Shown here piece after piece: positions 14,750-61,329 of a stretch of 64,000 nucleotides of DNA. Position 1 is the stretch's first letter. Each line of letters starts with the position of its first letter. Where the stretch lies: contig CAYRKB010000003.1 in assembly GCA_964424705.1 (NCBI GenBank), positions 1,956 to 65,955 on the forward strand, read 5' to 3'. The notes beneath the pieces were generated by a model, which was given only the letters and a program-made list of their open reading frames with translations, was not told the DNA's origin and did not search any database. A program made the translations under genes and the position numbers. The stretch comes from an uncultured Victivallales bacterium. GTDB taxonomy: Bacteria > Verrucomicrobiota > Kiritimatiellia > UBA8416 > CAYRKB01.

Positions 14750-14816
14750 TATCGAAAGGAGGCGTCAAGCGCTGCGACAAAGAATATTCGTACCATTCGT
14801 ACCCATTCGTACTCGG

Positions 14817-15008
14817 GCGCATGTGAGTTCCGGGGAGTTGTCCGTTCAGGCGCGTTTCTTTATCTCCGCGACGAGGGCGTCGCGACTCCAGAAACAAGCC
14901 GGGAGCGACAACGGGCAACTCCGACTGGAGATGCGGCGACCCCGCCGCGTCCTCTCCGAGCTTCGCCGCATCTCCCCGGGGCGGCGATCCCCGGAACTCA
15001 CATGCGCC
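14817..15008 (+). mobile_element. MITE-like element copy 1 (~192 bp, 20-bp terminal inverted repeats GCGCATGTGAGTTCCGGGGA)
   Basis: Termini gcgcatgtgagttccgggga ... tccccggaactcacatgcgc. One of 4 near-identical copies; lies between the response-regulator gene and rnfA. Confidence 0.8.
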
Positions 15009-15096
15009 CGCCTCGCCTCGGGCGCCCTGAATGTACTTTACGTGGCAGATAGGTTGGGGTAGCGTCCATTTGATATTCTGGCGTGAAGGAGCGGGC

Positions 15097-24977: not shown

Positions 24978-25069
24978 GTTGGCGCTCTCTCTTGTCCTCT
25001 TGTCTTGGACAGCGATACTTCGAAAGCATCCCTATTGCAATCTCAAACTGGCCTGCGCCCGCGCCCGGG

Positions 25070-25262
25070 GCGCATGTGAGTTCCGGGGATCGCCGCCCGG
25101 GGGAGGATGCGGCGAAGCTCGGAGAGAACGCGGCGGGGTCGCCGCATCTCCAGTCGGAGTTGCCCGTTGTCGCTCCCGGCTTGCTTCTGGAGTCGCGACG
25201 CCCTCGTCGCGGAGATAAAGAAACGCGCCTGAACAGACAACTCCCCGGAACTCACATGCGCC
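25070..25262 (-). mobile_element. MITE-like element copy 2 (opposite orientation to copy 1)
   Basis: Same 20-bp TIRs and the same internal sequence, reverse-complemented. Flanked by ccgcgccc on both sides (putative 8-9-bp target-site duplication). Confidence 0.8.
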
Positions 25263-26105
25263 CCCGCGCCCGCCGCTTCACGGCTTGGACGCAGTGCGTG
25301 CTTGATTGGCCGGGAACTCTGCATTCTCGCTCCAGTAGCGGCCCAGTTCCTTCATACCGGGCATGTTGCGAATCCATGAGGACAATGTCAGGCCGGTTGG
25401 TGCGCGTGCGCGTGTTCTCAGTGCCTTTTCAGGGACTTGAGCAGCTCCTCGCCATTGGGTCCACGCTTCCCTTTATGATGGCCGGTTCGTTGGCCGGTGT
25501 CAACGCGAAGAAGACCGACCGGCGGAAATGCCTCAGTGACGCAGGGGGGCTTCGGTAGGGACGCCTCTCCGAGGCCACCGCGGACGGTCCGGAGGTCCGT
25601 CCCTACCTCTGAGCGCCACCCGGTGACTGAGACGATACCCGGCGCGCCGGTCGTAAAAGAAGTGGGCCGCCGCGTCAGCGCGACGGCCCCGGCACCGAAC
25701 ACCCTGCAGAGCGCCCTACCAATCTCCTTTGTGCCCTTACGTAAGCACCACTACTTGCTTGCTGACTGAGGCCGCTCATCAGGGCCATCATTACAGAAAT
25801 CCTAACCCCACCTTTCACCCTCCTTTCGCTAAGAGAGTTTACCGACACCCGTCATGTAGCATAGCGGATGCCAAGATCGATCAGCTGCAGCGACAACTGT
25901 AAGTTGCTGTAGGACAGTATGGTACATTCAGACACCGATCGCCTATCGGACTGCCATGTCTCGCGAAGGTGTCAGGCGAATGTGTCGGTCGTGTCTCGCG
26001 GTGGCACCGGCTCTTCGGCGGCAATCGGCGTGACCCGGCGCAGTCTTTGACAAACCCGTGTTGGACTGATAAGTAGAGGCGCGGATTACCGAGCAAGGAG
26101 ACAAC

Positions 26106-36371: not shown

Positions 36372-36819
36372 TACATTGCAGGCGGCGTCAAGCGACCACT
36401 GCCAGAATCAGGACTGAGACCACAATCCGTATGCCCCATGGTTTCGTTGTGGGCGACCCGCTTCCGTTCGCTTCTTCCTCCAGTTGCAGAGTGCGTCAAT
36501 TGCGCATGCCACGAGGACTCGGATTCCAGCTGCTCCGCCTTGTCGTGCCTCAAGGGGAAGAGGTGGTAGACCTCAAGCTTGAGGCGGTATCGGTCGCAGA
36601 GCAGCGCCCCGTCCATACTTCTCCCGAATCGCGGGGCGCTGTGCCGCCTCCGCGATGCGCTTTTGCCGTTTTCGTTAAGGTCTGGTCGCCGACAAGGTTC
36701 GGCGCCGGTCGCCGCATTCTCCGGGCGCCCTTACTCCGCTCCGTTTTGCAGCTGAACGAAAGAGGAAGACACAAACGACCGCAGACGAACAAGGACGCGG
36801 AGGATGTGGTGGCGTTAGG

Positions 36820-37011
36820 GCGCATGTGAGTTCCGGGGATCGCCGCCCGGGGGAGATGCGGCGAAGCTCGGAGAGAACGCGGCGGGGTCGCCGCATCTCC
36901 AGTCGGAGTTGCCCGTTGTCGCTCCCGGCTTGCTTCTGGAGTCGCGACGCCCTCGTCGCGGAGATAAAGAAACGCGCCTGAACGGAGAACTCCCCGGAAC
37001 TCACACGCGCC
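36820..37011 (-). mobile_element. MITE-like element copy 3
   Basis: Same TIRs. Flanked by a perfect 9-bp direct duplication gtggcgtta. Lies immediately upstream of aroD. Confidence 0.85.
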
Positions 37012-37087
37012 CGTGGCGTTATAGGTGGTCGTTTCTTTGTTGCCTGCCGTCCCGATCTGCCGTTACATATCCCGATTCGGGAGAAAT

Positions 37088-50700: not shown

Positions 50701-52389
50701 TTAGGTTCTGTGTTTGCCGCCTGGTGCAACCTGCCTGAATGTCTCACCCAACTGCTTCAAGCCGGCCGAGCAGTCTCGGTCTGGCAGGCAGAGCTCTATC
50801 AAAAAGAGTTTATTGTGCTCTCTGGCGGCCCATTCCAGGGCCCGGCCCAACTCACCCTCAGTTGTCACCTTGATGCCCACGGCATAATCGCCGCCACCTA
50901 GCGCAGCAGGCAGGCCGGCATAGTTCCACATCTGGATATCGTTGTACGGGCCGTCCTCATGCAGCACCCGCTCAACAAGGTAGCCGTCATTGTTGATAAT
51001 CAGGATTATGGCAGGACAGCGCTGTCGTATTAGCGTGGACACTTCCTGGGCGGTCATCTGGAAAGCGCCGTCTCCGGTCAGTACAACAGGGCGCTTTCCG
51101 GGACGGGCCAACGCCACTCCCAGGGCAGCAGGGGTGCAGTATCCAATGGAAGAATAGTACGCCTGGACGATAAAGTTCTCGGGCTCCTCTATATGAAAAT
51201 CAAGGGCCGCGCAAAAGGCATCACCCGGCTCGGCAAGCAGGACCATAGTATCATCGAGGAAAGCGTCCAGTCGTTCGTACAGGCGAAGCGCTGTGAGTGT
51301 CTGCGTCGCAACAGGCGTAAACGTTGCCCTGCGGTTCTGTGACTCAACCGGATGCGAGTTCAGGTACGAACGGGGCTTTACGCTGGTCAACAGCCCGTGG
51401 ATAAAGTCGCCCAACTGCACGCTTGGATAGTAGTGGTCGCCAATATGCACCTGACCATTTGTAGCAACGATCATGCGACTGGCATCAAGATGGTCGCTGA
51501 ACAGCCCTGTATCAAGATCCGTCATCCAGGCTCCAAGCGACAGCAGGCAATCGGAACACTCGACTTGACGTCGGACCGCTTCCCGGCTCCACCCTCCCTG
51601 ATAAATGCCAATGAACTGGGGGTGGAGTTCCGGCAGCACGGATTTGCTGCTGAGCATGGTGGCAAAAGGAAGTTCCGCGGTTTCAACAAGCTGCAGCAAC
51701 CTGCCTCCCAGGCCGAAGCGCTGTAACTCTATGCCGGCCAGTATGACGGGGTTGTCAGCGCGGTCAATGCGAAGCAGCGCCTCTTTCAGGCAACTCTTCA
51801 GACTCTCCTCGTCGGAGTGCAGCGCGACGGAACCGGCAGGCGCAATTGGCTGGCGGCACGGCGCATGCGCCATGTCCGCGGGAAGCTCGAGGTAAACAGG
51901 AAGCTTGTGAAGAATCCCGTTACTGATCACCCTATCAATTTCATCAGGTGCGGCTATGGGATCGATGAGAATCGCCGCATCAACCGTCACTTTCTTGAAT
52001 ATATCCAGCTGCAAATAGTAATCGGTAACCAAGTGATGAACCAGTGCTCCCGCATCTCTGCGCCGGGCAGGTGGAGCGCCGCTGATGACTATCAGCGGGA
52101 CACGTTCGGAAAAGGCTCCCGCCACAGCGTTCAATATACTCAACCCGCCGACACAGTATGTTACCACGGCCGCACCGGCGCCGTTCAATCGTGCGTAGCC
52201 ATCGGCCGCGTAGCCTGCGTTCAACTCATTGCAGGTGCCGACCCACTGGATTGGACTGGCGATTACCTCGTCAAGAAAATCAAGGACATAATCGCCGGGC
52301 ACTCCGAACAGATGTCCAACACCCGCTTCCCGAAGGCGCTGGAGCAGATACCGGGATATGGTGCAGCTCTGTCCGCTGGTCTCCGTCAT
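50701..52389 (-). CDS. Thiamine-diphosphate-dependent 2-keto-acid decarboxylase (indolepyruvate/phenylpyruvate decarboxylase family)
   Basis: N-terminal Pyr domain (HLFGVPGDYVLDFLD), central domain, and C-terminal ThDP-binding GDGAF...NNDGY motif. Confidence 0.8.
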   Translation of the reverse strand: MTETSGQSCTISRYLLQRLREAGVGHLFGVPGDYVLDFLDEVIASPIQWVGTCNELNAGYAADGYARLNGAGAAVVTYCVGGLSILNAVAGAFSERVPLIVISGAPPARRRDAGALVHHLVTDYYLQLDIFKKVTVDAAILIDPIAAPDEIDRVISNGILHKLPVYLELPADMAHAPCRQPIAPAGSVALHSDEESLKSCLKEALLRIDRADNPVILAGIELQRFGLGGRLLQLVETAELPFATMLSSKSVLPELHPQFIGIYQGGWSREAVRRQVECSDCLLSLGAWMTDLDTGLFSDHLDASRMIVATNGQVHIGDHYYPSVQLGDFIHGLLTSVKPRSYLNSHPVESQNRRATFTPVATQTLTALRLYERLDAFLDDTMVLLAEPGDAFCAALDFHIEEPENFIVQAYYSSIGYCTPAALGVALARPGKRPVVLTGDGAFQMTAQEVSTLIRQRCPAIILIINNDGYLVERVLHEDGPYNDIQMWNYAGLPAALGGGDYAVGIKVTTEGELGRALEWAAREHNKLFLIELCLPDRDCSAGLKQLGETFRQVAPGGKHRT

Positions 52390-52463: not shown

Positions 52464-52880
52464 TCAGACGCGCAGGAATGTCATCTGCAGAATATTTCTA
52501 TTGTTTTCCCGTCGATAGCTTACGCTGTCACACAAGGTGCGGATAAGATGAATTCCCAGTCCACCGACAGCACGATCCGTTGCATCCAGAGTTGTGTCAG
52601 GCTCAGGGAGTGATAGGACATTAAACGGACTTCCGCTGTCGGCGATTGCCAGCAAAAACGCATCGCCACTTGTCGTGCAGGAAATCTCAACGCTGCCCTT
52701 ACCACCAGTATAGGCGTAGTGGCAGATATTGACGAACGCTTCCTCAACTGCAACCAGCAGGCCCGATGTCCTCTTGGGTGCCAACCCACAGCGGCCGGCG
52801 CACTCCCCGACGAATGCGGTCAGTACGTTTAGATTTCCAAGGGTGGCCGCACAGGTCATTCTGTCCGGGCTGAGTTCCAT
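52464..52880 (-). CDS. Anti-sigma factor / serine-protein kinase of partner-switching module (RsbW/SpoIIAB-like GHKL ATPase)
   Basis: N-box EEAFVNICHYA, with DSGSPF and GGLGIHLIR G-boxes. About 139 aa. Start taken at MELSPDR, 2 nt downstream of the STAS gene stop. Confidence 0.7.
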   Translation of the reverse strand: MELSPDRMTCAATLGNLNVLTAFVGECAGRCGLAPKRTSGLLVAVEEAFVNICHYAYTGGKGSVEISCTTSGDAFLLAIADSGSPFNVLSLPEPDTTLDATDRAVGGLGIHLIRTLCDSVSYRRENNRNILQMTFLRV

Positions 52881-52881
52881 G

Positions 52882-53217
52882 TCAGACCAGCGTGGCCAGG
52901 GCCGCTGCCACAGAGTCATCCATCTTGAAGATCGAGCCGAACCCCGAGATGTCAAAAACCTCTTTGACCGTACCTTTGACATTGGCGCAACGTACCTGCC
53001 CGCCTTTCGCCTTGAGTTGCTTTGCGGTCATCAGCAGCACACGCAAACCTGCGCTGCTGATGTAATTCAGACCGTCAAAATCAAAGACTAGAGCGTTCGC
53101 GCCGCTGCTAATCAACTCGTTGAGCGCTTTCCCGCAGTCTGCCGCGGTTACAGCATCGAGTCTGCCAGTTACCGTGACAACGGTCGCGGCTGCTTCCTTC
53201 TCTGTCCGGATTTCCAT
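52882..53217 (-). CDS. STAS-domain anti-sigma-factor antagonist (RsbV/SpoIIAA-like)
   Basis: 111 aa. Contains DFDGLNYISSAGLRVLL with the conserved phosphorylatable Ser. Confidence 0.8.
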   Translation of the reverse strand: MEIRTEKEAAATVVTVTGRLDAVTAADCGKALNELISSGANALVFDFDGLNYISSAGLRVLLMTAKQLKAKGGQVRCANVKGTVKEVFDISGFGSIFKMDDSVAAALATLV

Positions 53218-53430
53218 GGTTAGCTCCCTTTTGCGATTCTTACTTCGTCGTGCTGTCGGTCTGTTTCAGCATTAGAGTCACCCCGTTATTGCCATTCACT
53301 CGCCGGAACTCCATACTTTCCGTCAGCTTCGGGATAGCGTTAAGTCCCAGCTGATCCGATGTTAGTAAGTGACTAATGCGCTTGACTATGCCAGACGCCA
53401 CGGAAGATGTCCAGATCACCATCACAACGG

Positions 53431-53622
53431 GCGCTTGTGAGTTCCGGGGAGTTGTCCGTTCAGGCGCGTTGTTGTACCTCCGCGACGAGGGCGTCGCGAC
53501 TCCAGAAGCAAGCCGGGAGCGACAACGGGCAACTCCGACTGGAGATGCGGCGACCCCGCCGCGTTCTCTCCGGGCTTCGCCGCATCTCCCCCGGGCGGCG
53601 ATCCCCGGAACTCACATGCGCC
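53431..53622 (+). mobile_element. MITE-like element copy 4
   Basis: Same TIRs (one mismatch, gcgcTtgtgag). Flanked by atcacaac/ctcacaac near-identical 8-bp duplications. Lies between the rsbV-like start and the SBP gene. Confidence 0.8.
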
Positions 53623-53964
53623 CCCCTCACAACCATCTGAACCGTGAGCTCCAATGGGGCGGAAGAGGGGATCCCGTTCCTGCCGCGAGCGGCTACTCCC
53701 GGCCGAAACGGCTTTGCCGCTTACGTAGGGACTAGTCTCCGCGCCTTCGTGTCCCGCGTTAGGTCCTCCAGGCGAGAGGTGCACTCCTTGTAACGGGGTA
53801 GATGCCGATCTGAGCGCCCGTGATGCATTGCTGAATGCGCTGCATACTTGCTATTGGAGCGGCAGCTGTGCTATTAGGCTCCAAACGGCACGCGCTAGCC
53901 ACATCCGTGTGCGACCATCATTAGCGGCTATGTGTTTGTGCCAACAAAAGAGGGGGTAGTTATT

Positions 53965-54753
53965 ATGCCGCGCGGAATTGTTGCAATGTTATGCATCAGT
54001 GTAAGTTGTATTGTTGCCTTCATCAATACCGGCTGCAGCAAGAGAGAGATGATTACACAACTCCAACAATTGGACGGGAAAGAGTTTGCTGTCCCCACAG
54101 GAACCGCAGCCGACAAACTGGTATTATCCAGATTTCCCAATGCGAAGTTCAAGTACTTCAACAGTGTGATGGACGCCGCCTTGGCAGTAAAGACCGGGAA
54201 GGCCGATGCAGCGGCCTATGACGAACCCATTCTGAAGAACATTGCAGCAAACAACAGCGGGCTTACCGTCCTGCCGGAGATGATAACAATCGATAACTAC
54301 GGCTTTGCCGTGCAACAGAACAACCAACTGTTGAAGGCTAGCATTGATCTCGTTATAAGTGAGCTACATAAGAATGGCGGATATGATGCCATGCTGCTGC
54401 GTTGGCTCCCCAAGACAGGGCGCCCTGGCGTCATGCCGGAAATTGTGTCAAGTGGAAGCAAGGGTGTTTTAAGGCTCGGAACGGCGGCGGTAACTGAGCC
54501 GTTCTCATTTGTAGATGGCTCTCAGCAAATCGTCGGTCTGGACATCGAAGTGGCAGGTTATGTCGCCCGACAACTTGATATGACACTTGAGATCGTCAAC
54601 ATGGATTTCGGTGCAATGATCCCGGCGCTGATGGCTGGCAAAGTGGACATGATTGGAGCCTGCATCACCATTACCGGGGAGCGGGCACAAAAGGTGCTAT
54701 TTTCCGAGCCGTATTATACAGGGGGGATTGCTGCTCTAGTCAGGGAAAAGTAA
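53965..54753 (+). CDS. Amino-acid ABC transporter substrate-binding lipoprotein (apparently permuted or truncated SBD)
   Basis: Lipobox NTGC. The sequence reads as an SBP C-lobe-like segment followed by an N-lobe (GVLRLGTAAVTEPFSFVDGSQQIVGLDIEVAGYVARQL...GKVDMIGACITIT), ending at the usual hinge position. Confidence 0.55.
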   Translation: MPRGIVAMLCISVSCIVAFINTGCSKREMITQLQQLDGKEFAVPTGTAADKLVLSRFPNAKFKYFNSVMDAALAVKTGKADAAAYDEPILKNIAANNSGLTVLPEMITIDNYGFAVQQNNQLLKASIDLVISELHKNGGYDAMLLRWLPKTGRPGVMPEIVSSGSKGVLRLGTAAVTEPFSFVDGSQQIVGLDIEVAGYVARQLDMTLEIVNMDFGAMIPALMAGKVDMIGACITITGERAQKVLFSEPYYTGGIAALVREK

Positions 54754-54952
54754 CCCGGGCCTGTGTTCATAGAGTTTCCAGGGACGCGCAAGGATCATTG
54801 TCTCCGGGTTTCTCAGGCTCTGGTGAGGTTACAGCCTCTGAGAGCCTGCCAGTGGCCGCTACAATGGTTGCGGCTGCTTGCTTCTTTGTTTGGCTGTTCA
54901 TGGTCGGCCTTCTTTTCGCTCTTGCTCCAGCGCGCCGTCGATCGTGTAACCG

Positions 54953-56056
54953 TCACCGGACGCTTACGGCCTGTCGCATCATTAGCGTCACCCTGTTACA
55001 GCCATTGACCCGCTGGTACTCAATACTGTCTGTCAGGCTGTTGATAATGCTCAGCCCCAGCTCATCAGGCAGAAGATCCTTGTCAAGCGGGTTCAGTTCG
55101 GCCCCCGTGCTTTCGAAGGCAAGCTCCAGGCTCTTTTTCTTTTCAGAATAGGCAAGTGTCAGATCAAGGCGTGCCGAGGGGAGATAGGGGTTGTAAATCT
55201 GGAGCAGCTCCTCCACCAATAGCAGCAGATCGGATCTGGTCTTGCGCGGCAATATCTGCTTTTCGCAAAACGCTTCAATTTCCGAGTTCAGGGCATAGAG
55301 ATCATATTCCGGCGAACAGATCTGATAATGGAAGCTGCGAGTCCTTTGGATAAACGCCTTCGTTTTCACTTTATGAGGATTGTCAAATATCTGCTGCGGC
55401 GTGCCCTCTTCATAGATCAGCCCCTCATCCATGTATAAGATGCGGCTGGCGACGTCACGGGCAAAATCCATTTCGTGGGTGACAATCACCATGGTCATCC
55501 CTTCTTTGGTGAGGCGCCGGATCACCGAGAGGACTTCACTCACCATGGTCGGATCAAGTGCCGAAGTCGGCTCGTCAAACAGGATGATTTCTGGATCCAT
55601 GGCCAGACAGCGCGCAATGGCCACGCGCTGTTTTTGCCCGCCGGAAAGCTCGTCCGGGTAGTTGTCGGCCTTCTCAGCCAATCCTACCAACTTGAGAAGG
55701 TCCCGCGCTTTGACCTCCGCATCCTTCGCGCTCATCCCTTTCAATTTGACCGGACCAAGCGTCAGGTTGTCCAGTACGCAAAGGTGGGAAAACAGATTGA
55801 AAGACTGGAAGACCATGTTCATCTTTTGGCGTAGCTTCGGCACATCCGTATTCTTGCCGAGCATGTCGACTCCGTCAACACGGATGGAGCCGCCGCTCGG
55901 ATGATCCAGGAGATTGAGGCAGCGCAGGAAGGTGCTCTTGCCGGTGCCGGAGGGGCCGATGATGGCGATAACCTCTCCTTTGTGAATTTCGATGGAGATG
56001 TCCTTCAGGACGCTCAAATCCCCATATTGTTTCGAGAGATGTTCCACCGCTATCAT
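54953..56056 (-). CDS. Amino-acid ABC transporter ATP-binding protein (GlnQ/HisP-like) with C-terminal RsbW-like (GHKL-fold) extension
   Basis: Walker [10 protein letters not shown], signature [15 protein letters not shown], and Walker [12 protein letters not shown]. The C-terminal ~120 aa ([15 protein letters not shown]...[27 protein letters not shown]) align with the RsbW-like protein at 52464-52880. Confidence 0.8.
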
Positions 56057-58368
56057 ATCGCGGCCCTCTTTCTTCGTCTCTGTCTCGGGTCGGTCCGACG
56101 CTCAAGATATTCCAGCCCCTGCATCAGGAACCACGATACCGCGAAGTAGAGTATCGCCACCATGACCAGCGGAAAAAAAGCGTCAAAGGTTCGACTGCGG
56201 ATGATGTCGCTCGCCTTGGTCAGATCCTGTACGGCGATGTAGCCGACAATGGACGTCATTTTGACCAGCGATATGAATTCGCCCTTGAATACCGGCAGAA
56301 TACGCCGCACGGTCTGCGGGAGCACAATATGGAGAAACGTGGACACCTTGGTGAACCCTAGCGAGTGTCCGGCTTCCGCCTGCCCCCGGTCCACACTCTC
56401 GACGCCGGTTCTGAATATTTCCGCCGAATAGGCCGCAAAGTTCATCCCGAAGGCGATGACGGCAACGAGCACGGGGTTGATATTGATTGAGGCGAAGACG
56501 ACGTAGAAAAGAATCATTAGCAGCACCAGCACCGGAACACCGCGCAGGACCGAAATGTAAATTGCGGCCGGCAGATTGAGCGAAGCTCTTTTCGACATGC
56601 GCATAAAACAGACCAGTGCCCCAAGCAAGGTTCCGAACCCCGCCGCCAGTACGGAAATTACAACCGTGGTCTTGAGGCCGTCAAGAATGAGCAGATAGCG
56701 GTCTTCCTGTATGATATTGCTCTGGAAGCTGTTGGCTATGCCCTTGAAGAAGGATGTCGTGGTGGGCGCTGAATCTGCCGCCACTACAGTACCGGCAATA
56801 CGTTCCTTAAGGGCAAAGAAGGTGGCGTTAAGATCATAATAGATATCCGAAAAATCGATCTTTTGCTTTCGTTCCTCGGTCATCATCAAGGTGCTGGCAA
56901 TCATGTCAATCTTGCCAGCTAAAAGCGCAGCAATGAGACTGCCAAACTCCATGTCCTCAAATTGGATTTCTTTCCCGATGGAGGCCGCGAATCTTTGGGC
57001 GAGCTCAATGTCAAATCCGATCAACCGGTTATCCTTGACCACGGTAAAAGGAAGACCCTTGTCGCTCACATTGCCAACAACCAGTACGCCGTCGGTTTTC
57101 CCGTGGGCAATCTCCGGCATGTGCAAGCTGCCGTTTGTTATCCAGCGGTTGACCATGTCATCGTATACGCCGCTTTGCTTAATCAGACGCAGGAATTGGT
57201 TGAATTGGCTGCGGAAGCGATCGTCGCCCTTGTTAAACCCCATGCCCAGGTGTGAGACAAACAATGAGTCCCCCAGGAGTCCCAATGCGCTGTCATCGTG
57301 GAGAATGACAATCATTGATTCTCGGATGTACATGCCCGCATCCACCTTCCCCGACTTCACGGCCAGGATCAGGTCGGAGGGCGATTTGTATTGGAGAATC
57401 GTGGCCCTCTTAAAATGTTCCATTGCATATGTATCGTGAACTGTACCGAGCAGCACGCCGATCCGTTTATCACTGAGATCGGCCGCCGAGGTGAGTGTTG
57501 TCCCGCGGGCCTGATTAACGAGCGCCGAGCCGGGAGCAGGCTGAGTGGATCGTCTTACCAAGGCGGAAGTATCGTTTCTGATATAGGACTGCGAAAAGCT
57601 GACCAGTTTCTTCCGCTCTTCCGTAACATTGAAGTTCGAAAACGCGAAATCTATCTTTCCTGATTGCAGTGCAGGAATCAGGGCTTCAAAAGTCATGTCA
57701 ATGATTTCGATCTGTTTCCCGAGGCGCAAGCCTATCATCCGGCCAAGTTCAATATCCAGACCGGTAAGAATGCCATCTGCTTGAAACGAAAACGGTTCGT
57801 CTGTGGCGCAGGTCCCCATTCTAAGCACGCCCGTGGTATTAGTGTTGATGATGTCCGGCAGCGGTGGTGTTGCCTCATAATTGGAATCCACCCATTTGTC
57901 TCTCAGCCGTTGCAAGACTCCTTCCGATGTCAGATCCTGCAGCGCACGGTTCACTTCAGAAAGCAGCGCCGTATTGTCCTTGTTTATAGCCGCCGCGACG
58001 TCAAGGCTATCTAACGGCTGGTCAAGAATGACCAGTTCCGGGTTCTTCTTGACTAGTTTCATCAATACGATTCTGTCAAAAACAAAGGCGTCTGTCTTTT
58101 TGCCCTTGATCGCCAAAACAGCATCTGCTGGAGCGTTCAGCACCTGAAAAACGGCGTGGGGAAACCGCTGCCGGGCCGCCAGGTCGCCCGACGACCCCGA
58201 CAGGACGCATATCCTCTTGCCATCGAGTTGCTCCAACTGTGAGATGGCGTCCTTTGGGTTTGAAGCGGGGTCATCAAAACTGGTTATGGGGCGCTCATGC
58301 CGGCTGCAGCCGGCAATGCTCGTCACAACTACCACACAGGCGAATGTGTTTAGAAACGTGATTTTCAT
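56053..58368 (-). CDS. Fused amino-acid ABC transporter: tandem periplasmic substrate-binding domains + permease (GlnP-like SBD-SBD-TMD)
   Basis: Lipobox IAGC. Repeated SBP type-3 regions follow (three N-lobe-like segments GVLRMGT..., RIGVLLGT..., GVLVVGN...). The C-terminal HisM/GlnP permease carries the EAA-like loop ...[15 protein letters not shown]. Its stop overlaps the ATPase gene start. Confidence 0.8.
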
Positions 58369-58391
58369 GGTTATCGCTTTTGCTGTGTGCT

Positions 58392-60335
58392 TTAAACTCC
58401 CCTATATGTAATCGCGAGCATGGTGACATCGTCGGACTGCGGGGCCCCATTGGCGTGCCGTTGGACGTCGACACGGATATGGTGAACCATCTCCGCAAGC
58501 TTTCCCCGGGGCCCGTTCTGCAGAGCCGCGAGCAGTTGCCGTTCGCCATAGAGTTCATCTGCAGAATTGGCCGCCTCGGTCACGCCATCGGTATAGAGGA
58601 AAAGGGTGTCGCCCGGTTGTAGGGTGAGCTGTTCGGGGTCAAAAACCCGGTCCTCCATAGGGCCCAGCACAAATCCCGCCTTCGGCGTCATGTACTGTAT
58701 TCCGCGGGCGTCGATAATCAACGGCGGGTTATGGCCCGCATTAGAATACCGCACGACGCCGGTCCGGGTATCGAGAATGGCGCAGAACACCGTGGCAAAC
58801 ATGCAGGTGTCATTGTCGGCCGCAAGAACATTGTTTACGCAGGAAAGGATCTGGCCAGGTTCGCCCAGGCGTTGCCCCTCTGATTTCAACAGGGTCTTTG
58901 TCACCATCATGTACAGGGCCGCCGGCACCCCCTTGCCGGCCACGTCGGCAATCAGGAAGCAAAGGTTGTTGTCATCAACAAAGAAGAAATCGTAGAAATC
59001 GCCGCCCACTTCTTTCGCCGGATCCATGGAGGCAAAAATGTCGAATTCGGAACGGTGCGGGAAAGCGGGAAACAAGCGGGGCAGCAGGCTGGCCTGGATA
59101 TCGGTGGCCACGTTGAGCTCGCTCTGGATGCGCTCCTTGGCGGCAGTAGTCTCGGTCAGATTCCTAATGTACTCCTTCAGCGATTCCGTCATGACCTGAA
59201 AGCTGCGAGAAAGCACGCCGACCTCATCATTCGAGCGTACCGCGGGCAGTGTCAGATCGAATGTGCCCGAGGCAATCACATGCGTCGCCGCCGCCAGTGA
59301 TCGGAGGGGCTGGGTGATGGAACGGGCAATGAACACCACTGCCAACGTAAGCAACAGGATTCCCGCCAGCCCCATACTTGCCATGGTGATGCTAAGAGAT
59401 CTGACATTCTCGAGAAGTTCCTTCTCGGGGAACACCACCGCAATGGTCCACCCCGCCGACTGGACTGGCGCATAATACATCCAGCTTCTGACGCCAACGA
59501 GGCTCTTGTAGAGAATGAAACCTGACTCTCCCCTGACCATTTTCCTGCCCAATGTCCTTAGGTGTGGATCATTACGAGCTTCTGCGATGCTAAAGAAGGT
59601 TTCGTTCATGATGGCGTCTTTGAGCGGATGGGCGAGCACCATGCCGTTTCGTGAGAGCAGGGCGGCGTAACCGGTTCGAAGTATCTTGATGGATGAGATC
59701 AGTTGTGTCAGCGAATCAAGCGCGATGTCGGCAGTCACAATCCCTTTAAGGCGCCTCTCTCCGCTAATCTCCCCGTAAAAGGGGGCTGAACAGGTAGACA
59801 TGGCAATATTGCCCGCCCCCTCGTCGAAGTACGGTTCACTCCATTCAGTCTTGCCCAACGCTTTCGGAATTTGATACCAGTCCCAGTTTGGATAGGGAAC
59901 AAACTTGTACGAGTCCTCCAGGCGGCAGAAGGCGATCTTCCCTTTGTCGCGATAATAATAGGGGGCATACAGGCAGGATTCGGCCTTGAAGGCGAATGGC
60001 TCAAAGGCAACGCCAGAGCCGCATATTTCCGGAGTCTTTTCGACCGTGGTTCTGATCAGAGAATGGAGTTCTTCCTCCGAATATCGGCCGGTTTCAAGTG
60101 CACGAGCGACCCCTTCCGTTATCTTGGCAACCGCGGTAAGCTCCGTCTCCACCCGGTTGACCAGCGACATGGCCAGGTTACGCGCATTACCTTCCAGCTC
60201 TTTCTCCAGAATGAGGCGGGAGTGGTAATAGTTATATCCGAGCGTCACGGCAAAGATGAGCGAACTGCAGAGCGTGATAACCAGGACCAGTCTGAGGAAG
60301 ATGCTATTGTGTCCCGGCATCAGCCCTCCCGGCAA
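58392..60335 (-). CDS. Membrane-bound PP2C-family phosphatase (SpoIIE/RsbU-like) with periplasmic Cache-type sensor and HAMP domain
   Basis: TM1, a ~270-aa periplasmic domain, TM2, and HAMP (SLAAATHVIASGTFDL). The PP2C/SpoIIE region is VGGDFYDFFFVDDNNLCFLIADVAGKGVPAAL...YTDGVTEA...SDDVTML. Confidence 0.8.
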   Translation of the reverse strand: MPGGLMPGHNSIFLRLVLVITLCSSLIFAVTLGYNYYHSRLILEKELEGNARNLAMSLVNRVETELTAVAKITEGVARALETGRYSEEELHSLIRTTVEKTPEICGSGVAFEPFAFKAESCLYAPYYYRDKGKIAFCRLEDSYKFVPYPNWDWYQIPKALGKTEWSEPYFDEGAGNIAMSTCSAPFYGEISGERRLKGIVTADIALDSLTQLISSIKILRTGYAALLSRNGMVLAHPLKDAIMNETFFSIAEARNDPHLRTLGRKMVRGESGFILYKSLVGVRSWMYYAPVQSAGWTIAVVFPEKELLENVRSLSITMASMGLAGILLLTLAVVFIARSITQPLRSLAAATHVIASGTFDLTLPAVRSNDEVGVLSRSFQVMTESLKEYIRNLTETTAAKERIQSELNVATDIQASLLPRLFPAFPHRSEFDIFASMDPAKEVGGDFYDFFFVDDNNLCFLIADVAGKGVPAALYMMVTKTLLKSEGQRLGEPGQILSCVNNVLAADNDTCMFATVFCAILDTRTGVVRYSNAGHNPPLIIDARGIQYMTPKAGFVLGPMEDRVFDPEQLTLQPGDTLFLYTDGVTEAANSADELYGERQLLAALQNGPRGKLAEMVHHIRVDVQRHANGAPQSDDVTMLAITYRGV

Positions 60336-61329
60336 AGGTGCTGTAGTCAGGATAATTCTGGATCAAACCCTCCTGTTTCAGGGCCGTTCCAACCGCTTCG
60401 TAATCCTGCTCCTTGAGTAGGCCGGGCGAGCCTTGGGAAGGACCTGGCATGATCAGGTCCCGCATCCGGTCAAGCATCCATTTCTGGTGAATCCGGTTGG
60501 CGGGCACTTGTGCTTGGCGCATGCACTTGATGACAATCTCCAGCGCCTCGTTGGGATGATCAAAGGCATAGCACCACCCCTCCAGTGACGCGCTGACAAA
60601 GGCCTTCGCCAGCGCCGGGTCTTTCCGGAGAGTTTCGTCCAGAGCGTAGAGCCCGTCTTCCGGAAAATTCATTCCCTGTTCATGGAGGGCGACAATATTC
60701 AATTCTTCCCGATCAACTCCCGAGTTGAGGATGGTATGATACTCGTTATACCACATGGCGGAGGTCACATCGACGCCGCCCCTGAGGAAGAGGTTGACGG
60801 TGTGGGACTGGGGCACCTCAAAGACCGTGACCCCATTTTGGGCAAACAGTAAGTGGGGAAGGATTGACAGGTCTCCCCCCCACAGCCCCACCTTCTTGCC
60901 GTTCATGTCTTTTATTGTTTTGATGCCGCTCGATCTTCTGGAAATCAGCAGGATGGATGAGCGCTGAACCATTTGGGCCAGATGGACGAGCTTCATGCCG
61001 GCGGAACGGTGCTGCAGGGCCGTTGTCAGCCAGAGCACGGCAAAATCGGCCTGGCCGTCTTTCAAACCTTGTATTGGGGACTGACCGGGCCCCGCCTTGC
61101 GGATGGTCAGGTCGATGCCATGCCGGGCATATATTCCCTTGTCGAGAGCCACGTAATATCCGGCAAACTGCGATTGAGGACTCCAGAGAGGCATGAGGGA
61201 GGCTTTTTTCAGGGGGGCTTCGGCTCCAGTTACACGGGACACGGTAGAGCAGAGCAGAAGAATTACACAGCACGTCGTCAGCGCCCAGCATTCCCTGATA
61301 AGTATTGCTGTCTTCGTGAACGCGCTCAT
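60304..61329 (-). CDS. ABC-type periplasmic substrate-binding protein (NMT1/SsuA/THI5-like)
   Basis: Signal peptide, then LWSPQSQFAGYYVALDKGIYARHGIDLTIRKAG...DFAVLWLTTAL, typical of NitT/TauT-family SBPs. The 3' end overlaps the phosphatase gene by about 30 nt. Confidence 0.65.
   Translation of the reverse strand: MSAFTKTAILIRECWALTTCCVILLLCSTVSRVTGAEAPLKKASLMPLWSPQSQFAGYYVALDKGIYARHGIDLTIRKAGPGQSPIQGLKDGQADFAVLWLTTALQHRSAGMKLVHLAQMVQRSSILLISRRSSGIKTIKDMNGKKVGLWGGDLSILPHLLFAQNGVTVFEVPQSHTVNLFLRGGVDVTSAMWYNEYHTILNSGVDREELNIVALHEQGMNFPEDGLYALDETLRKDPALAKAFVSASLEGWCYAFDHPNEALEIVIKCMRQAQVPANRIHQKWMLDRMRDLIMPGPSQGSPGLLKEQDYEAVGTALKQEGLIQNYPDYSTFAGRADAGTQ

Follow-up and report, generated by a model that had tools for sequence, protein, structure and literature searches.

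We propose, with a probability of roughly 0.55, that a gene cluster on contig CAYRKB010000003.1 (window positions 52464-61329) codes for a partner-switching module which has an ABC importer as its partner and probably as its output. All positions refer to the window, the whole 64-kb stretch of DNA that was analysed. The ATPase of the importer carries a fused C-terminal domain (CTD) that is descended from the anti-sigma kinases of the RsbW/SpoIIAB type. Because a dead RsbW domain is joined to the ATPase and shares an operon with a STAS protein, a phosphatase and a kinase, the transporter is probably a docking site for a phospho-switch.

In the proposed mechanism, the stand-alone RsbW kinase would phosphorylate the serine of the STAS protein and switch it off. 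The membrane PP2C phosphatase would remove the phosphate upon a signal at its periplasmic dCache domain, perhaps jointly with an NMT1-like binding protein. The unphosphorylated STAS protein could then bind to the pseudokinase CTDs, which would hang as a dimer under both nucleotide-binding domains (NBDs), and this binding would alter the ATPase and transport activity. The STAS protein would alternate between the kinase and the transporter. Homology and gene order point to the docking of the STAS protein on the CTD as the putative physical coupling to the transporter.

The cluster encodes a partner-switching module and an amino acid importer

The first gene of the cluster (60304..61329, minus strand) encodes an NMT1/SsuA-like periplasmic binding protein (Pfam NMT1, E 5.7e-41) and overlaps by 32 nt with the gene of a membrane sensor phosphatase (58392..60335, minus strand). 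The phosphatase consists of a periplasmic dCache domain, a HAMP domain and a PP2C domain of the SpoIIE/RsbU type, with Pfam matches to SpoIIE (2.9e-52), MCP-like_PDC_1 (1.1e-27), dCache_1 (1.7e-17) and HAMP (7.6e-13). Its top NCBIfam model was SiaA, with a score far under the SiaA cut-off. The following gene (56053..58368, minus strand) encodes a GlnP-like importer permease with tandem substrate-binding domains (SBDs) fused to its N-terminus, where Pfam found SBP_bac_3 in three stretches (2.4e-63) together with BPD_transp_1 (5.3e-20). The permease stop overlaps by 4 nt with the start of the GlnQ-like ATPase gene (54953-56056, minus strand). Residues 1-237 of the ATPase (55346..56056) form a GlnQ/TcyN-like NBD (Pfam ABC_tran, 1.5e-35) that matched positions 1-238 of the 240 in the NCBIfam GlnQ model (E 3.5e-91) and scored under every NCBIfam equivalog cut-off. 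With this NBD, the BPD_transp_1 permease and the family-3 SBDs, the transporter belongs to the polar amino acid importers of the GlnPQ/HisP type.

Further downstream, a single-domain STAS protein of the anti-sigma-antagonist type with the phosphorylatable serine motif YISSAGLR is encoded at 52882..53217 on the minus strand (Pfam STAS, 1.7e-20); it exceeded the cut-off of the NCBIfam anti-sigma factor antagonist model. Its stop codon is overlapped by the start of the stand-alone RsbW-type serine kinase gene (52464..52880, minus strand; Pfam HATPase_c_2, 1.8e-28). A PP2C phosphatase, a STAS protein with the serine motif and an RsbW-type kinase, by which a partner-switching module is recognised, are all co-encoded in the window. 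The genes named in the preliminary description were found at these positions and confirmed by Pfam, all on the minus strand except that of the stand-alone substrate-binding protein (SBP).

Partner-switching is taught mainly as a sigma-factor mechanism. A phmmer scan of the 64-kb window with RpoE, SigF and RpoD queries, which were approximate and of uncalibrated sensitivity, detected no sigma-70-family ORF, in agreement with the preliminary description, which had listed no cognate sigma factor there. In 83 related loci, each of ~20 kb, the same approximate queries also detected no sigma-70 gene at distances of up to about 10 kb. These results support the proposed mechanism and bear on an alternative that we consider rather unlikely, in which the transporter is itself the sensor. 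The conformation or bound nucleotide of the NBD dimer would report whether substrate is being transported and would decide whether the CTD captures or releases the STAS protein. This would determine how much free STAS the RsbW kinase/anti-sigma protein encounters, and that protein would in turn control an unlinked sigma factor or another regulator. Such a role, which matches the framing of the preliminary description, fits with the intact RsbW beside the STAS gene in the window and in 28 other loci (29 in total). It also fits with the occurrence of NMT1-PP2C-STAS-RsbW cassettes without a transporter, which show that the module has other outputs. However, no conserved sigma factor or regulator was found near the cluster, several loci have no RsbW beside STAS, and the dCache-PP2C protein is already a dedicated extracytoplasmic sensor.

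The C-terminal domain has the fold of an anti-sigma kinase

The CTD comprises residues ~238-367 and the stop codon (54953..55345, minus strand) and has a GHKL fold of the RsbW/SpoIIAB type with degenerate ATP-binding motifs. The preliminary description had recognised this RsbW-like C-terminus correctly but placed its start about 10 residues too late; the domain begins at residue ~238 (nt 55345). BLASTP of the CTD with the neighbouring RsbW-like protein gave 27% identity (E 2e-7). In hhalign, the CTD matched the neighbouring RsbW kinases with 98.2% probability (E 4.5e-14), and this profile-profile alignment covered the whole length, the N-terminal strand and helix included. The similarity noted earlier by eye is therefore beyond chance. 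Pfam HATPase_c_2, with a cut-off of 27.4 bits, matched the isolated CTD over profile positions 8-125 of 127 with 27.8 bits, whereas in the context of the whole ATPase the score of 23.8 bits was under the cut-off; 20 of 21 members of the CTD family were matched. The NCBIfam models of GlnQ, HisP, ArtP and TcyN have 240-257 positions and end at residue ~238, which bears out the earlier statement that the extension is not the usual GlnQ C-terminus.

The predicted structure showed the Bergerat alpha/beta sandwich, nearer to the anti-sigma kinases than to the CA domains of histidine kinases. In Foldseek, the top 23 matches were all anti-sigma kinases, and no TOBE, NIL, CBS or other solved ABC regulatory domain was among the fold matches of the CTD. 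The full-length model of the ATPase (pTM 0.74) has no flexible linker, suggesting that the CTD is rigidly joined to the NBD as a fixed unit. Taken together, profiles, profile-profile alignment, predicted structure and synteny support the earlier claim of an ATPase with a fused RsbW-like domain in a partner-switching cluster.

Judged by its motifs, the CTD is a catalytically dead pseudokinase and not a kinase, because the N-box Asn, the G1 Asp and the G2 glycines are lost and the ATP lid is 11 residues shorter than in the kinases. The G2 Arg is missing as well. The kinase motifs EExxxN, DxGxxF and RxIGGLG, which are conserved across the neighbouring kinases, correspond to VEELL-Q, S-T-G and D-E-L-G in the CTD. 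The N-box Asn is replaced by Gln286, at a position that varies between Q, R, A and E across the family, and the G1 Asp by Ser316, where S, T, N and C occur. In contrast, the N-box, G1 and G2 are intact in the stand-alone RsbW, and its alignment to RsbW of B. subtilis (6m36) showed that EExxxN, DxGxxF and GGLG are kept. Loci L001, L029, L034 and L082 hold only the PP2C, the transporter with the CTD and STAS, and no separate kinase gene nearby, which supports the transporter as the partner of STAS. Loci of this kind could also be accounted for if the CTD were an active serine kinase which phosphorylates the STAS protein itself. With the N-box Asn, the G1 Asp, the G2 Arg and two glycines missing, a short lid and substituted positions that vary within the family, we regard such an activity as extremely improbable.

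The whole-length homology would also suit a reading in which the CTD pairs with the stand-alone RsbW instead of STAS, and the heterodimer of two RsbW folds tethers or sequesters this kinase on the importer. A division of binding and kinase roles between RsbW paralogues, as known from M. smegmatis, is a precedent for our main reading, and RsbW3 acts there via its binding to RsbW1 (PMC7693655). A pairing of CTD and RsbW is very unlikely here, as 12 of the 41 loci with a linked STAS gene lack an RsbW gene beside it, the neighbour that is conserved is STAS, and the two CTDs of one transporter are expected to pair with each other.

The fusion is conserved and often linked to STAS

The fusion of NBD and CTD is kept in relatives and occurs in 128 species-level genomes of many phyla; of 83 loci, 80 encode the two parts within a single ORF. 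The family extends over Desulfuromonadales, Chlorobiaceae, methanotrophs, nitrifiers, Syntrophomonas, Acidobacteriota and anammox bacteria, and cultured hosts are Methylobacter tundripaludum, Methylovulum miyakonense HT12, Nitrosomonas communis Nm44 and Trichlorobacter thiogenes. In the databases, the proteins are named only 'polar amino acid ABC transporter ATP-binding protein'. As far as we found, this widespread arrangement of the fusion with a partner switch has not been described in the literature.

A STAS gene follows the CTD at a distance of 24-135 nt in 41 of 77 loci, and in most of these, distant phyla included, the distance is 24-40 nt. If the two were not directly linked in function, this close position across distant phyla would be difficult to account for. 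Ser54 and Ser55 of the YISSAGLR motif were invariant in all CTD-adjacent STAS proteins (47/47). The genes of the dCache-HAMP-PP2C and NMT1-like proteins are usually positioned upstream, and in 24 of the 57 loci with sufficient upstream sequence the NMT1 gene immediately precedes that of the PP2C. Among the 55 loci having both flanks, STAS and PP2C were both present in 27 and neither was nearby in 17. The latter suggest that the CTD may work without a dedicated STAS protein or may have another primary role.

The 17 loci without STAS and PP2C also favour a reading in which the CTD is an ordinary regulatory or dimerisation domain, like the TOBE domain of MalK, NIL of MetN or CBS of OpuA. It would hold the NBDs together, or a small ligand in the degenerate ATP pocket would cause trans-inhibition, and the partner-switch genes would merely be co-regulated neighbours. 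SpoIIAB and RsbW are dimers, and the rigid connection of NBD and CTD in the predicted structure would suit this role. The most strongly conserved CTD motifs, a ten-residue motif with an invariant Cys and YSEK, are equally conserved in the STAS-less loci and are probably not the STAS interface; the family-specific invariant residues D252, E259, C264 and S304-E305-K306 are kept whatever the STAS linkage. On the other side, the short STAS distance is found in most linked loci of distant phyla, and the fold is specific to the STAS-binding kinases. In addition, only the STAS-linked loci conserve the helix of the CTD that corresponds to the G2/lid region, which in complexes of the kinases lies beside the STAS serine, a contrast that is confounded by phylogeny: G334 is kept at 0.98 in the linked and 0.53 in the unlinked loci, I337 at 1.00 and 0.58, and L341 at 0.91 and 0.42. 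We consider an ordinary domain unlikely.

Comparison with known systems

The post-translational control of bacterial ABC importers is known from few cases, namely MalK-EIIAGlc, MetN trans-inhibition, OpuA and MlaB. We hold tentatively, at slightly worse than even chances, that a widespread group of SBP-dependent importers is gated post-translationally by a phospho-switchable STAS protein that docks on an RsbW-derived pseudokinase 'receptor' of the ATPase. If true, this would be the first partner switch with membrane transport as its direct output, and it would show how an unrelated machine took over the fold of an anti-sigma kinase as a module for protein docking. The phosphorylation of STAS, which would act on the transporter itself, would be set by an extracytoplasmic sensor phosphatase, and the family would join the post-translational regulation of ABC importers with partner-switching.

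An extra domain after the NBD is known from the type I importers with MalK (TOBE), MetN (NIL/C2), ModC and OpuAA (CBS), where it is positioned to dimerise below the NBDs and relays a regulatory input. The GHKL/Bergerat fold of the CTD is entirely unlike these domains, and its presumed ligand is a phospho-regulated protein. Compared to the RsbW, SpoIIAB and UsfX kinases of Pfam HATPase_c_2, the domain is here fused to the C-terminus of an ABC NBD and is found without a sigma factor; its lid is shorter, and the N-box Asn, G1 Asp and G2 glycines are missing. In GlnPQ of Lactococcus lactis, tandem SBDs are fused to the permease, and the SBD-SBD-permease architecture and the GlnQ-like NBD are shared with the cluster described here; canonical GlnQ, however, has about 240-250 residues (240 positions in the NCBIfam model) and no C-terminal domain.

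SiaC, the switch protein of SiaABCD, is not a canonical STAS protein. Modules that resemble partner switches but have outputs other than sigma factors are known (bioRxiv 10.64898/2026.04.08.717354). In SiaABCD of P. aeruginosa and HenR/All4160 of Anabaena (bioRxiv 10.64898/2026.04.08.717354), as proposed here, a membrane or sensor PP2C and a kinase set the phosphorylation of a switch protein whose direct target is an enzyme and not a sigma factor. The likeness to SiaABCD extends to the PP2C, which is nearest to SiaA among the NCBIfam models, and to the CTD, for which SiaB was the second-best fold match. Those modules act on a diguanylate cyclase or a glycosyltransferase, targets into which no RsbW-like receptor domain is built. 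MlaB is a STAS protein that binds to the ABC ATPase MlaF, and here too a small STAS protein would be the dedicated partner of an ATPase, in the case of MlaF one required for stability and function (PMC7367683). In contrast to the proposed docking, MlaB binds on the NBD itself, MlaF has no RsbW-like domain, no PP2C/kinase pair is co-encoded with Mla, and Mla is a lipid transporter and not an SBP-dependent amino acid importer.

A rearrangement separates the ATPase and STAS genes

The gap of 1.7 kb between the ATPase and STAS genes contains an inverted SBP gene, a MITE copy and a remnant of an ATPase-CTD gene, a local rearrangement that the preliminary description had not mentioned. It had listed an SBP gene, but this gene (53932..54753), which encodes the stand-alone substrate-binding lipoprotein of the transporter, lies on the plus strand and is an inverted, displaced gene of the operon. 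Its product is 33% identical to the N-terminal region of the permease. The orthologue in locus L007 has 78.6% nucleotide identity, and in relatives the orthologue precedes the permease gene and has the orientation of the operon; the inverted order was also seen in one independent metagenome contig. The MITE-like repeat at 53427..53628 is one of four copies in the window, the others being at 36818-37014, 14814-15014 and 25067-25263 with 95-96% identity to it in blastn. The repeat is ~195 bp long, and terminal inverted repeats of 22 bp are visible in the alignment.

Adjacent to the repeat, a decayed 3' remnant of a second ATPase-CTD gene was found at 53240..53425 on the minus strand. It is 55% identical to the C-terminal end of the CTD over 38 residues (E 2e-11; phmmer 1e-8), and a search upstream of it gave no further coding similarity. 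Only 22 nt lie between the end of the remnant and the STAS start downstream, and this boundary is the ancestral CTD-STAS junction.

The gene cluster and its conserved neighbourhood

The minus strand of the window carries a co-directional gene set from 61329 to 52464. It starts with an NMT1/SsuA-like periplasmic binding protein (60304-61329), followed by a membrane phosphatase that combines dCache, HAMP and PP2C/SpoIIE domains (58392-60335, here PP2C) and a permease with N-terminally fused tandem family-3 substrate-binding domains (56053-58368). A GlnQ-like ABC ATPase of 367 aa (54953-56056), a single-domain STAS protein with the serine motif YISSAGLR (52882-53217) and an RsbW-type HATPase_c_2 protein (52464-52880) complete the set. 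Start and stop codons overlap at the NMT1/PP2C, permease/ATPase and STAS/RsbW junctions, which is consistent with an operon. When the stand-alone RsbW was aligned with B. subtilis RsbW (PDB 6m36), the N-box EExxxN, the G1 motif DxGxxF and the G2 motif GGLG were all found intact. Directly downstream on the same strand lies a TPP-dependent decarboxylase-like gene (50701-52389). A homologue is located upstream of the cluster in the related locus L012, and the association may therefore be a loose linkage rather than chance.

The conservation of the neighbourhood was followed by translating all ORFs of 83 related loci and searching them with the window proteins. The nucleotide-binding domain (NBD) and the C-terminal domain (CTD, residues ~238-367) of the ATPase were encoded in a single ORF in 80 of the 83 loci, the exceptions being frameshifted or truncated contigs. 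The canonical order was NMT1, dCache-HAMP-PP2C, (SBP), permease with substrate-binding domains, NBD::CTD, STAS and (RsbW), where SBP is a stand-alone substrate-binding protein and brackets mark genes not always present. Among the 77 loci with at least 1.5 kb of downstream sequence, 41 had a STAS gene 24-135 nt after the NBD::CTD gene. Where both flanks were available (55 loci), STAS and PP2C were found together in 27, STAS only in 2, PP2C only in 9 and neither in 17. Ser54 and Ser55 of STAS were invariant in all 47 proteins. The preliminary description had stated that the window encodes no cognate sigma factor; this was borne out, as approximate query sequences detected no sigma-70-family ORF either in the window or across the 83 loci.

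In 16 loci STAS was followed by a co-oriented RsbW kinase. The Methylobacter clade (13 loci) had the kinase gene in convergent orientation; its motifs were intact and it encodes a genuine kinase. L001, L029, L034 and L082 had no separate kinase beside STAS. We regard it as quite improbable that the partner of the CTD is the RsbW kinase, a pairing modelled on that of RsbW3 with RsbW1 in M. smegmatis (PMC7693655).

In the Trichlorobacter clade (L053 10417-14903 and L002 5781-8047) genes for an MR_MLE enolase-superfamily enzyme resembling dipeptide epimerases, a membrane protein of the DUF819 family and another, distinct Cache-HAMP-PP2C come after ATPase::CTD; STAS is not adjacent. These neighbours may hint at the transported substrate.

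The C-terminal domain of the ATPase is related to RsbW

The ABC models of NCBIfam and Pfam stop at about residue 238 of the ATPase and about 125 residues remain beyond. The preliminary description had taken this extension for an RsbW-like domain that differs from the usual C-terminus of ABC ATPases, and both parts of the claim were upheld. Pfam HATPase_c_2 covered the C-terminus with its profile positions 8-125 of 127, scoring 23.8 bits in the whole ATPase, which misses the 27.4-bit cut-off, and 27.8 bits for the CTD scanned by itself. The same model matched 20 of 21 members of the CTD family with E <= 0.01. By BLASTP, the CTD was 27% identical to the adjacent RsbW (E 2e-7), and hhalign aligned 83 CTDs with 34 RsbW kinases of the same loci over 119 columns with 98.2% probability (E 4.5e-14). 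A CTD model computed with AlphaFold2 from a 21-sequence alignment (pLDDT 91.7, pTM 0.85) was submitted to Foldseek, and the best 23 PDB matches were all anti-sigma-type serine kinases; UsfX, SpoIIAB, RsbW, the RsbW domain of Rv1364c and SiaB were matched. RsbW, SpoIIAB and UsfX are the closest precedents for fold and homology. The TOBE, NIL and CBS domains of importer ATPases occupy the same position as the CTD but have a different fold, and such regulatory domains were absent from the fold-match lists. A search of the PDB sequences with the CTD family profile gave nothing significant (best E 0.31), so the CTD is tied to solved structures by fold comparison only.

In the full-length ATPase model (pLDDT 89, pTM 0.74) the first CTD strand (239-246) comes straight after the last NBD helix (230-236) with no flexible linker, and the fusion is accordingly modelled as rigid.

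The catalytic motifs of the kinase are replaced in the CTD

Profile-profile alignment showed that the residues shared by 80% or more of the neighbouring kinases lack a counterpart in the CTD. The position of the N-box Asn is occupied by Gln286 and is variable (Q in 62, R in 7, A in 5 and E in 3 of 83), Ser316 aligns with the G1 Asp at a position that varies between S, T, N and C, and D331-E-L-G334 stands opposite the kinase motif RxIGGLG. Compared with the kinases, the ATP-lid segment lacks 11 residues. The CTD family has invariant residues of its own, namely D252, E259, F263, C264, S304, E305 and K306. Since the catalytic motifs are replaced and the lid is shortened, ATP binding and kinase activity of the CTD are very unlikely, and the domain is classed as a pseudokinase. 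The reading of the CTD as an active kinase was rejected on this motif evidence and retains next to no probability.

The helix equivalent to the G2/lid region differed between loci with and without STAS. Conservation was 0.98 versus 0.53 for G334, 1.00 versus 0.58 for I337 and 0.91 versus 0.42 for L341 in STAS-linked and unlinked loci, respectively. The strong conservation in the STAS-linked loci only points to this G2-like helix as a candidate STAS contact, with the contrast confounded by phylogeny. The YSEK motif and a 10-residue motif of the CTD were kept in linked and unlinked loci alike. A CTD that works without STAS, as a dimerisation or ligand-binding domain, is in our view unlikely.

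Distribution of the fusion and probable origin of the CTD

The identical ATPase protein was found in JGI and NCBI metagenome assemblies (protein P0173), with the gene order of the window. Over 120 clusters of full-length proteins of ~363 aa, with 72-88% identity, have no more specific database name than 'polar amino acid transport system ATP-binding protein' or 'ATP-binding cassette domain-containing protein'. An exhaustive profile search collected 395 clusters at the 50% identity level, and many of these are fragments. When one genome was scanned per species, the fusion was detected in 128 species. The hosts include Geobacteraceae and other Desulfuromonadales, Desulfobulbales, Chlorobiaceae, Nitrosomonas, Ca. 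Nitrotoga, Methylococcaceae (Methylobacter, Methylovulum, Methylomicrobium), Methylophilales, Burkholderiales, Sphingomonadales, Syntrophomonas, Peptococcaceae, Bryobacteraceae, Solibacteraceae, Ignavibacteriaceae, Rhodothermales, Verrucomicrobiota and Ca. Kuenenia. Every CTD found was joined to a transporter of the polar-amino-acid ABC importer type, in rare cases as one polypeptide with the order permease-NBD-CTD (P0157, 569 aa) or SBP-permease-NBD-CTD (P0127, 882 aa). The top match of the exhaustive search, the 140-aa protein P0011, joins the first 23 STAS residues to a CTD. It was set aside as a STAS-CTD fusion because it lies on a 590-bp ENA contig and its junction falls in the shared motif T-P-(D/E)-Y; it is probably an assembly chimera, with a true recombinant as the alternative.

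When metagenome contigs were searched with a STAS alignment, 80 loci with 37-63% identity were recovered. STAS adjoined an NBD::CTD gene in 7 of these, and many others were NMT1-PP2C-STAS-RsbW or STAS-RsbW-NMT1-PP2C cassettes without a transporter. An NMT1-like protein, dCache-HAMP-PP2C, STAS and RsbW occurred with no ABC transporter in L089, L090, L095, L096, L109, L115, L121, L124, L126 and L149, showing that the cassette of sensor phosphatase, STAS and kinase is an independent, autonomous module. In the CTD family, PP2C and STAS flank the nested transporter genes. The most plausible origin of the CTD is the fusion of an RsbW gene to the NBD. In L130 (6374-8209, minus strand) an ABC ATPase of 243 aa without a CTD precedes a tandem STAS-STAS protein, whose Ser motif is degenerate, and an intact RsbW kinase, which hints that the association of ABC ATPase, STAS and RsbW may also exist in an unfused form.

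A possible control of the transporter by STAS

We propose that the stand-alone RsbW would phosphorylate STAS and that the dCache-PP2C would remove the phosphate upon an extracytoplasmic cue. The unphosphorylated STAS could then bind the CTD pair beneath the NBD dimer and modulate ATP hydrolysis and transport, either up or down. The transporter might instead be the sensor and not the target, reporting its own state to the switch, which we consider possible, if rather unlikely. The proposed binding of STAS to the ATPase resembles MlaF-MlaB, where a STAS protein sits on an ABC ATPase, but that system has neither an RsbW-like domain nor phospho-switch genes (PMC7367683). Precedents with non-sigma outputs are SiaABCD and the Anabaena HenR/All4160 module (bioRxiv 10.64898/2026.04.08.717354). 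Full-text searches of the literature turned up no report of an ABC ATPase that bears an RsbW-like domain. The fusion is widespread and lacks annotation, and bacteria in culture would allow it to be tested directly.

The gap between the ATPase and STAS genes is rearranged in the window

The 1.7-kb gap between the ATPase and STAS genes contains an SBP gene, a MITE-like repeat and a gene remnant. The stand-alone SBP gene of the operon (53932-54753, plus strand) has moved downstream of the ATPase and lies on the opposite strand to the operon; in relatives its orthologue precedes the permease gene and has the orientation of the operon, with 78.6% nucleotide identity in L007, the closest genome relative. 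The protein aligns to just part of the permease N-terminus, and a truncated remnant was ruled out by the stand-alone orthologue of the same length in relatives. In the Pfam match, residues 180-272 correspond to SBP_bac_3 positions 1-92 and residues 39-130 to a lobe-2-like segment; compared with classical SBPs, the domains thus look permuted or offset in their order.

The MITE-like repeat of ~195 bp (53427-53628, minus strand), upstream of STAS, has perfect terminal inverted repeats of 22 bp (GGGCGCATGTGAGTTCCGGGGA ... TCCCCGGAACTCACATGCGCCC). Further copies with 95-96% identity are at 36818-37014 (plus), 14814-15014 (minus) and 25067-25263 (plus). Rfam, applied to the whole window and to 53200-54000, returned only a tRNA and a sub-threshold 'VA RNA' match, which is the repeat itself and was discarded as an RNA.

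A 61-codon ORF (53240-53425, minus strand) is what is left of the 3' end of a second, decayed ATPase-CTD gene. Its C-terminal 38 aa are 55% identical to the CTD end, and 22 nt separate its stop from STAS, the ancestral distance between CTD and STAS. This implies that the transporter genes were replaced or duplicated in this lineage. An independent metagenome contig showed the same order of the gap, which excludes an artefact of the window's assembly. STAS and RsbW may now be transcribed apart from the transporter; promoter-like matches are present in the gap and carry no weight as evidence of function. In L007 (4320-5372) a gene for a 350-aa lipoprotein, Bmp/PnrA-like by eye from its sequence, lies between ATPase::CTD and STAS, which marks the CTD-STAS junction as a recurrent insertion point.
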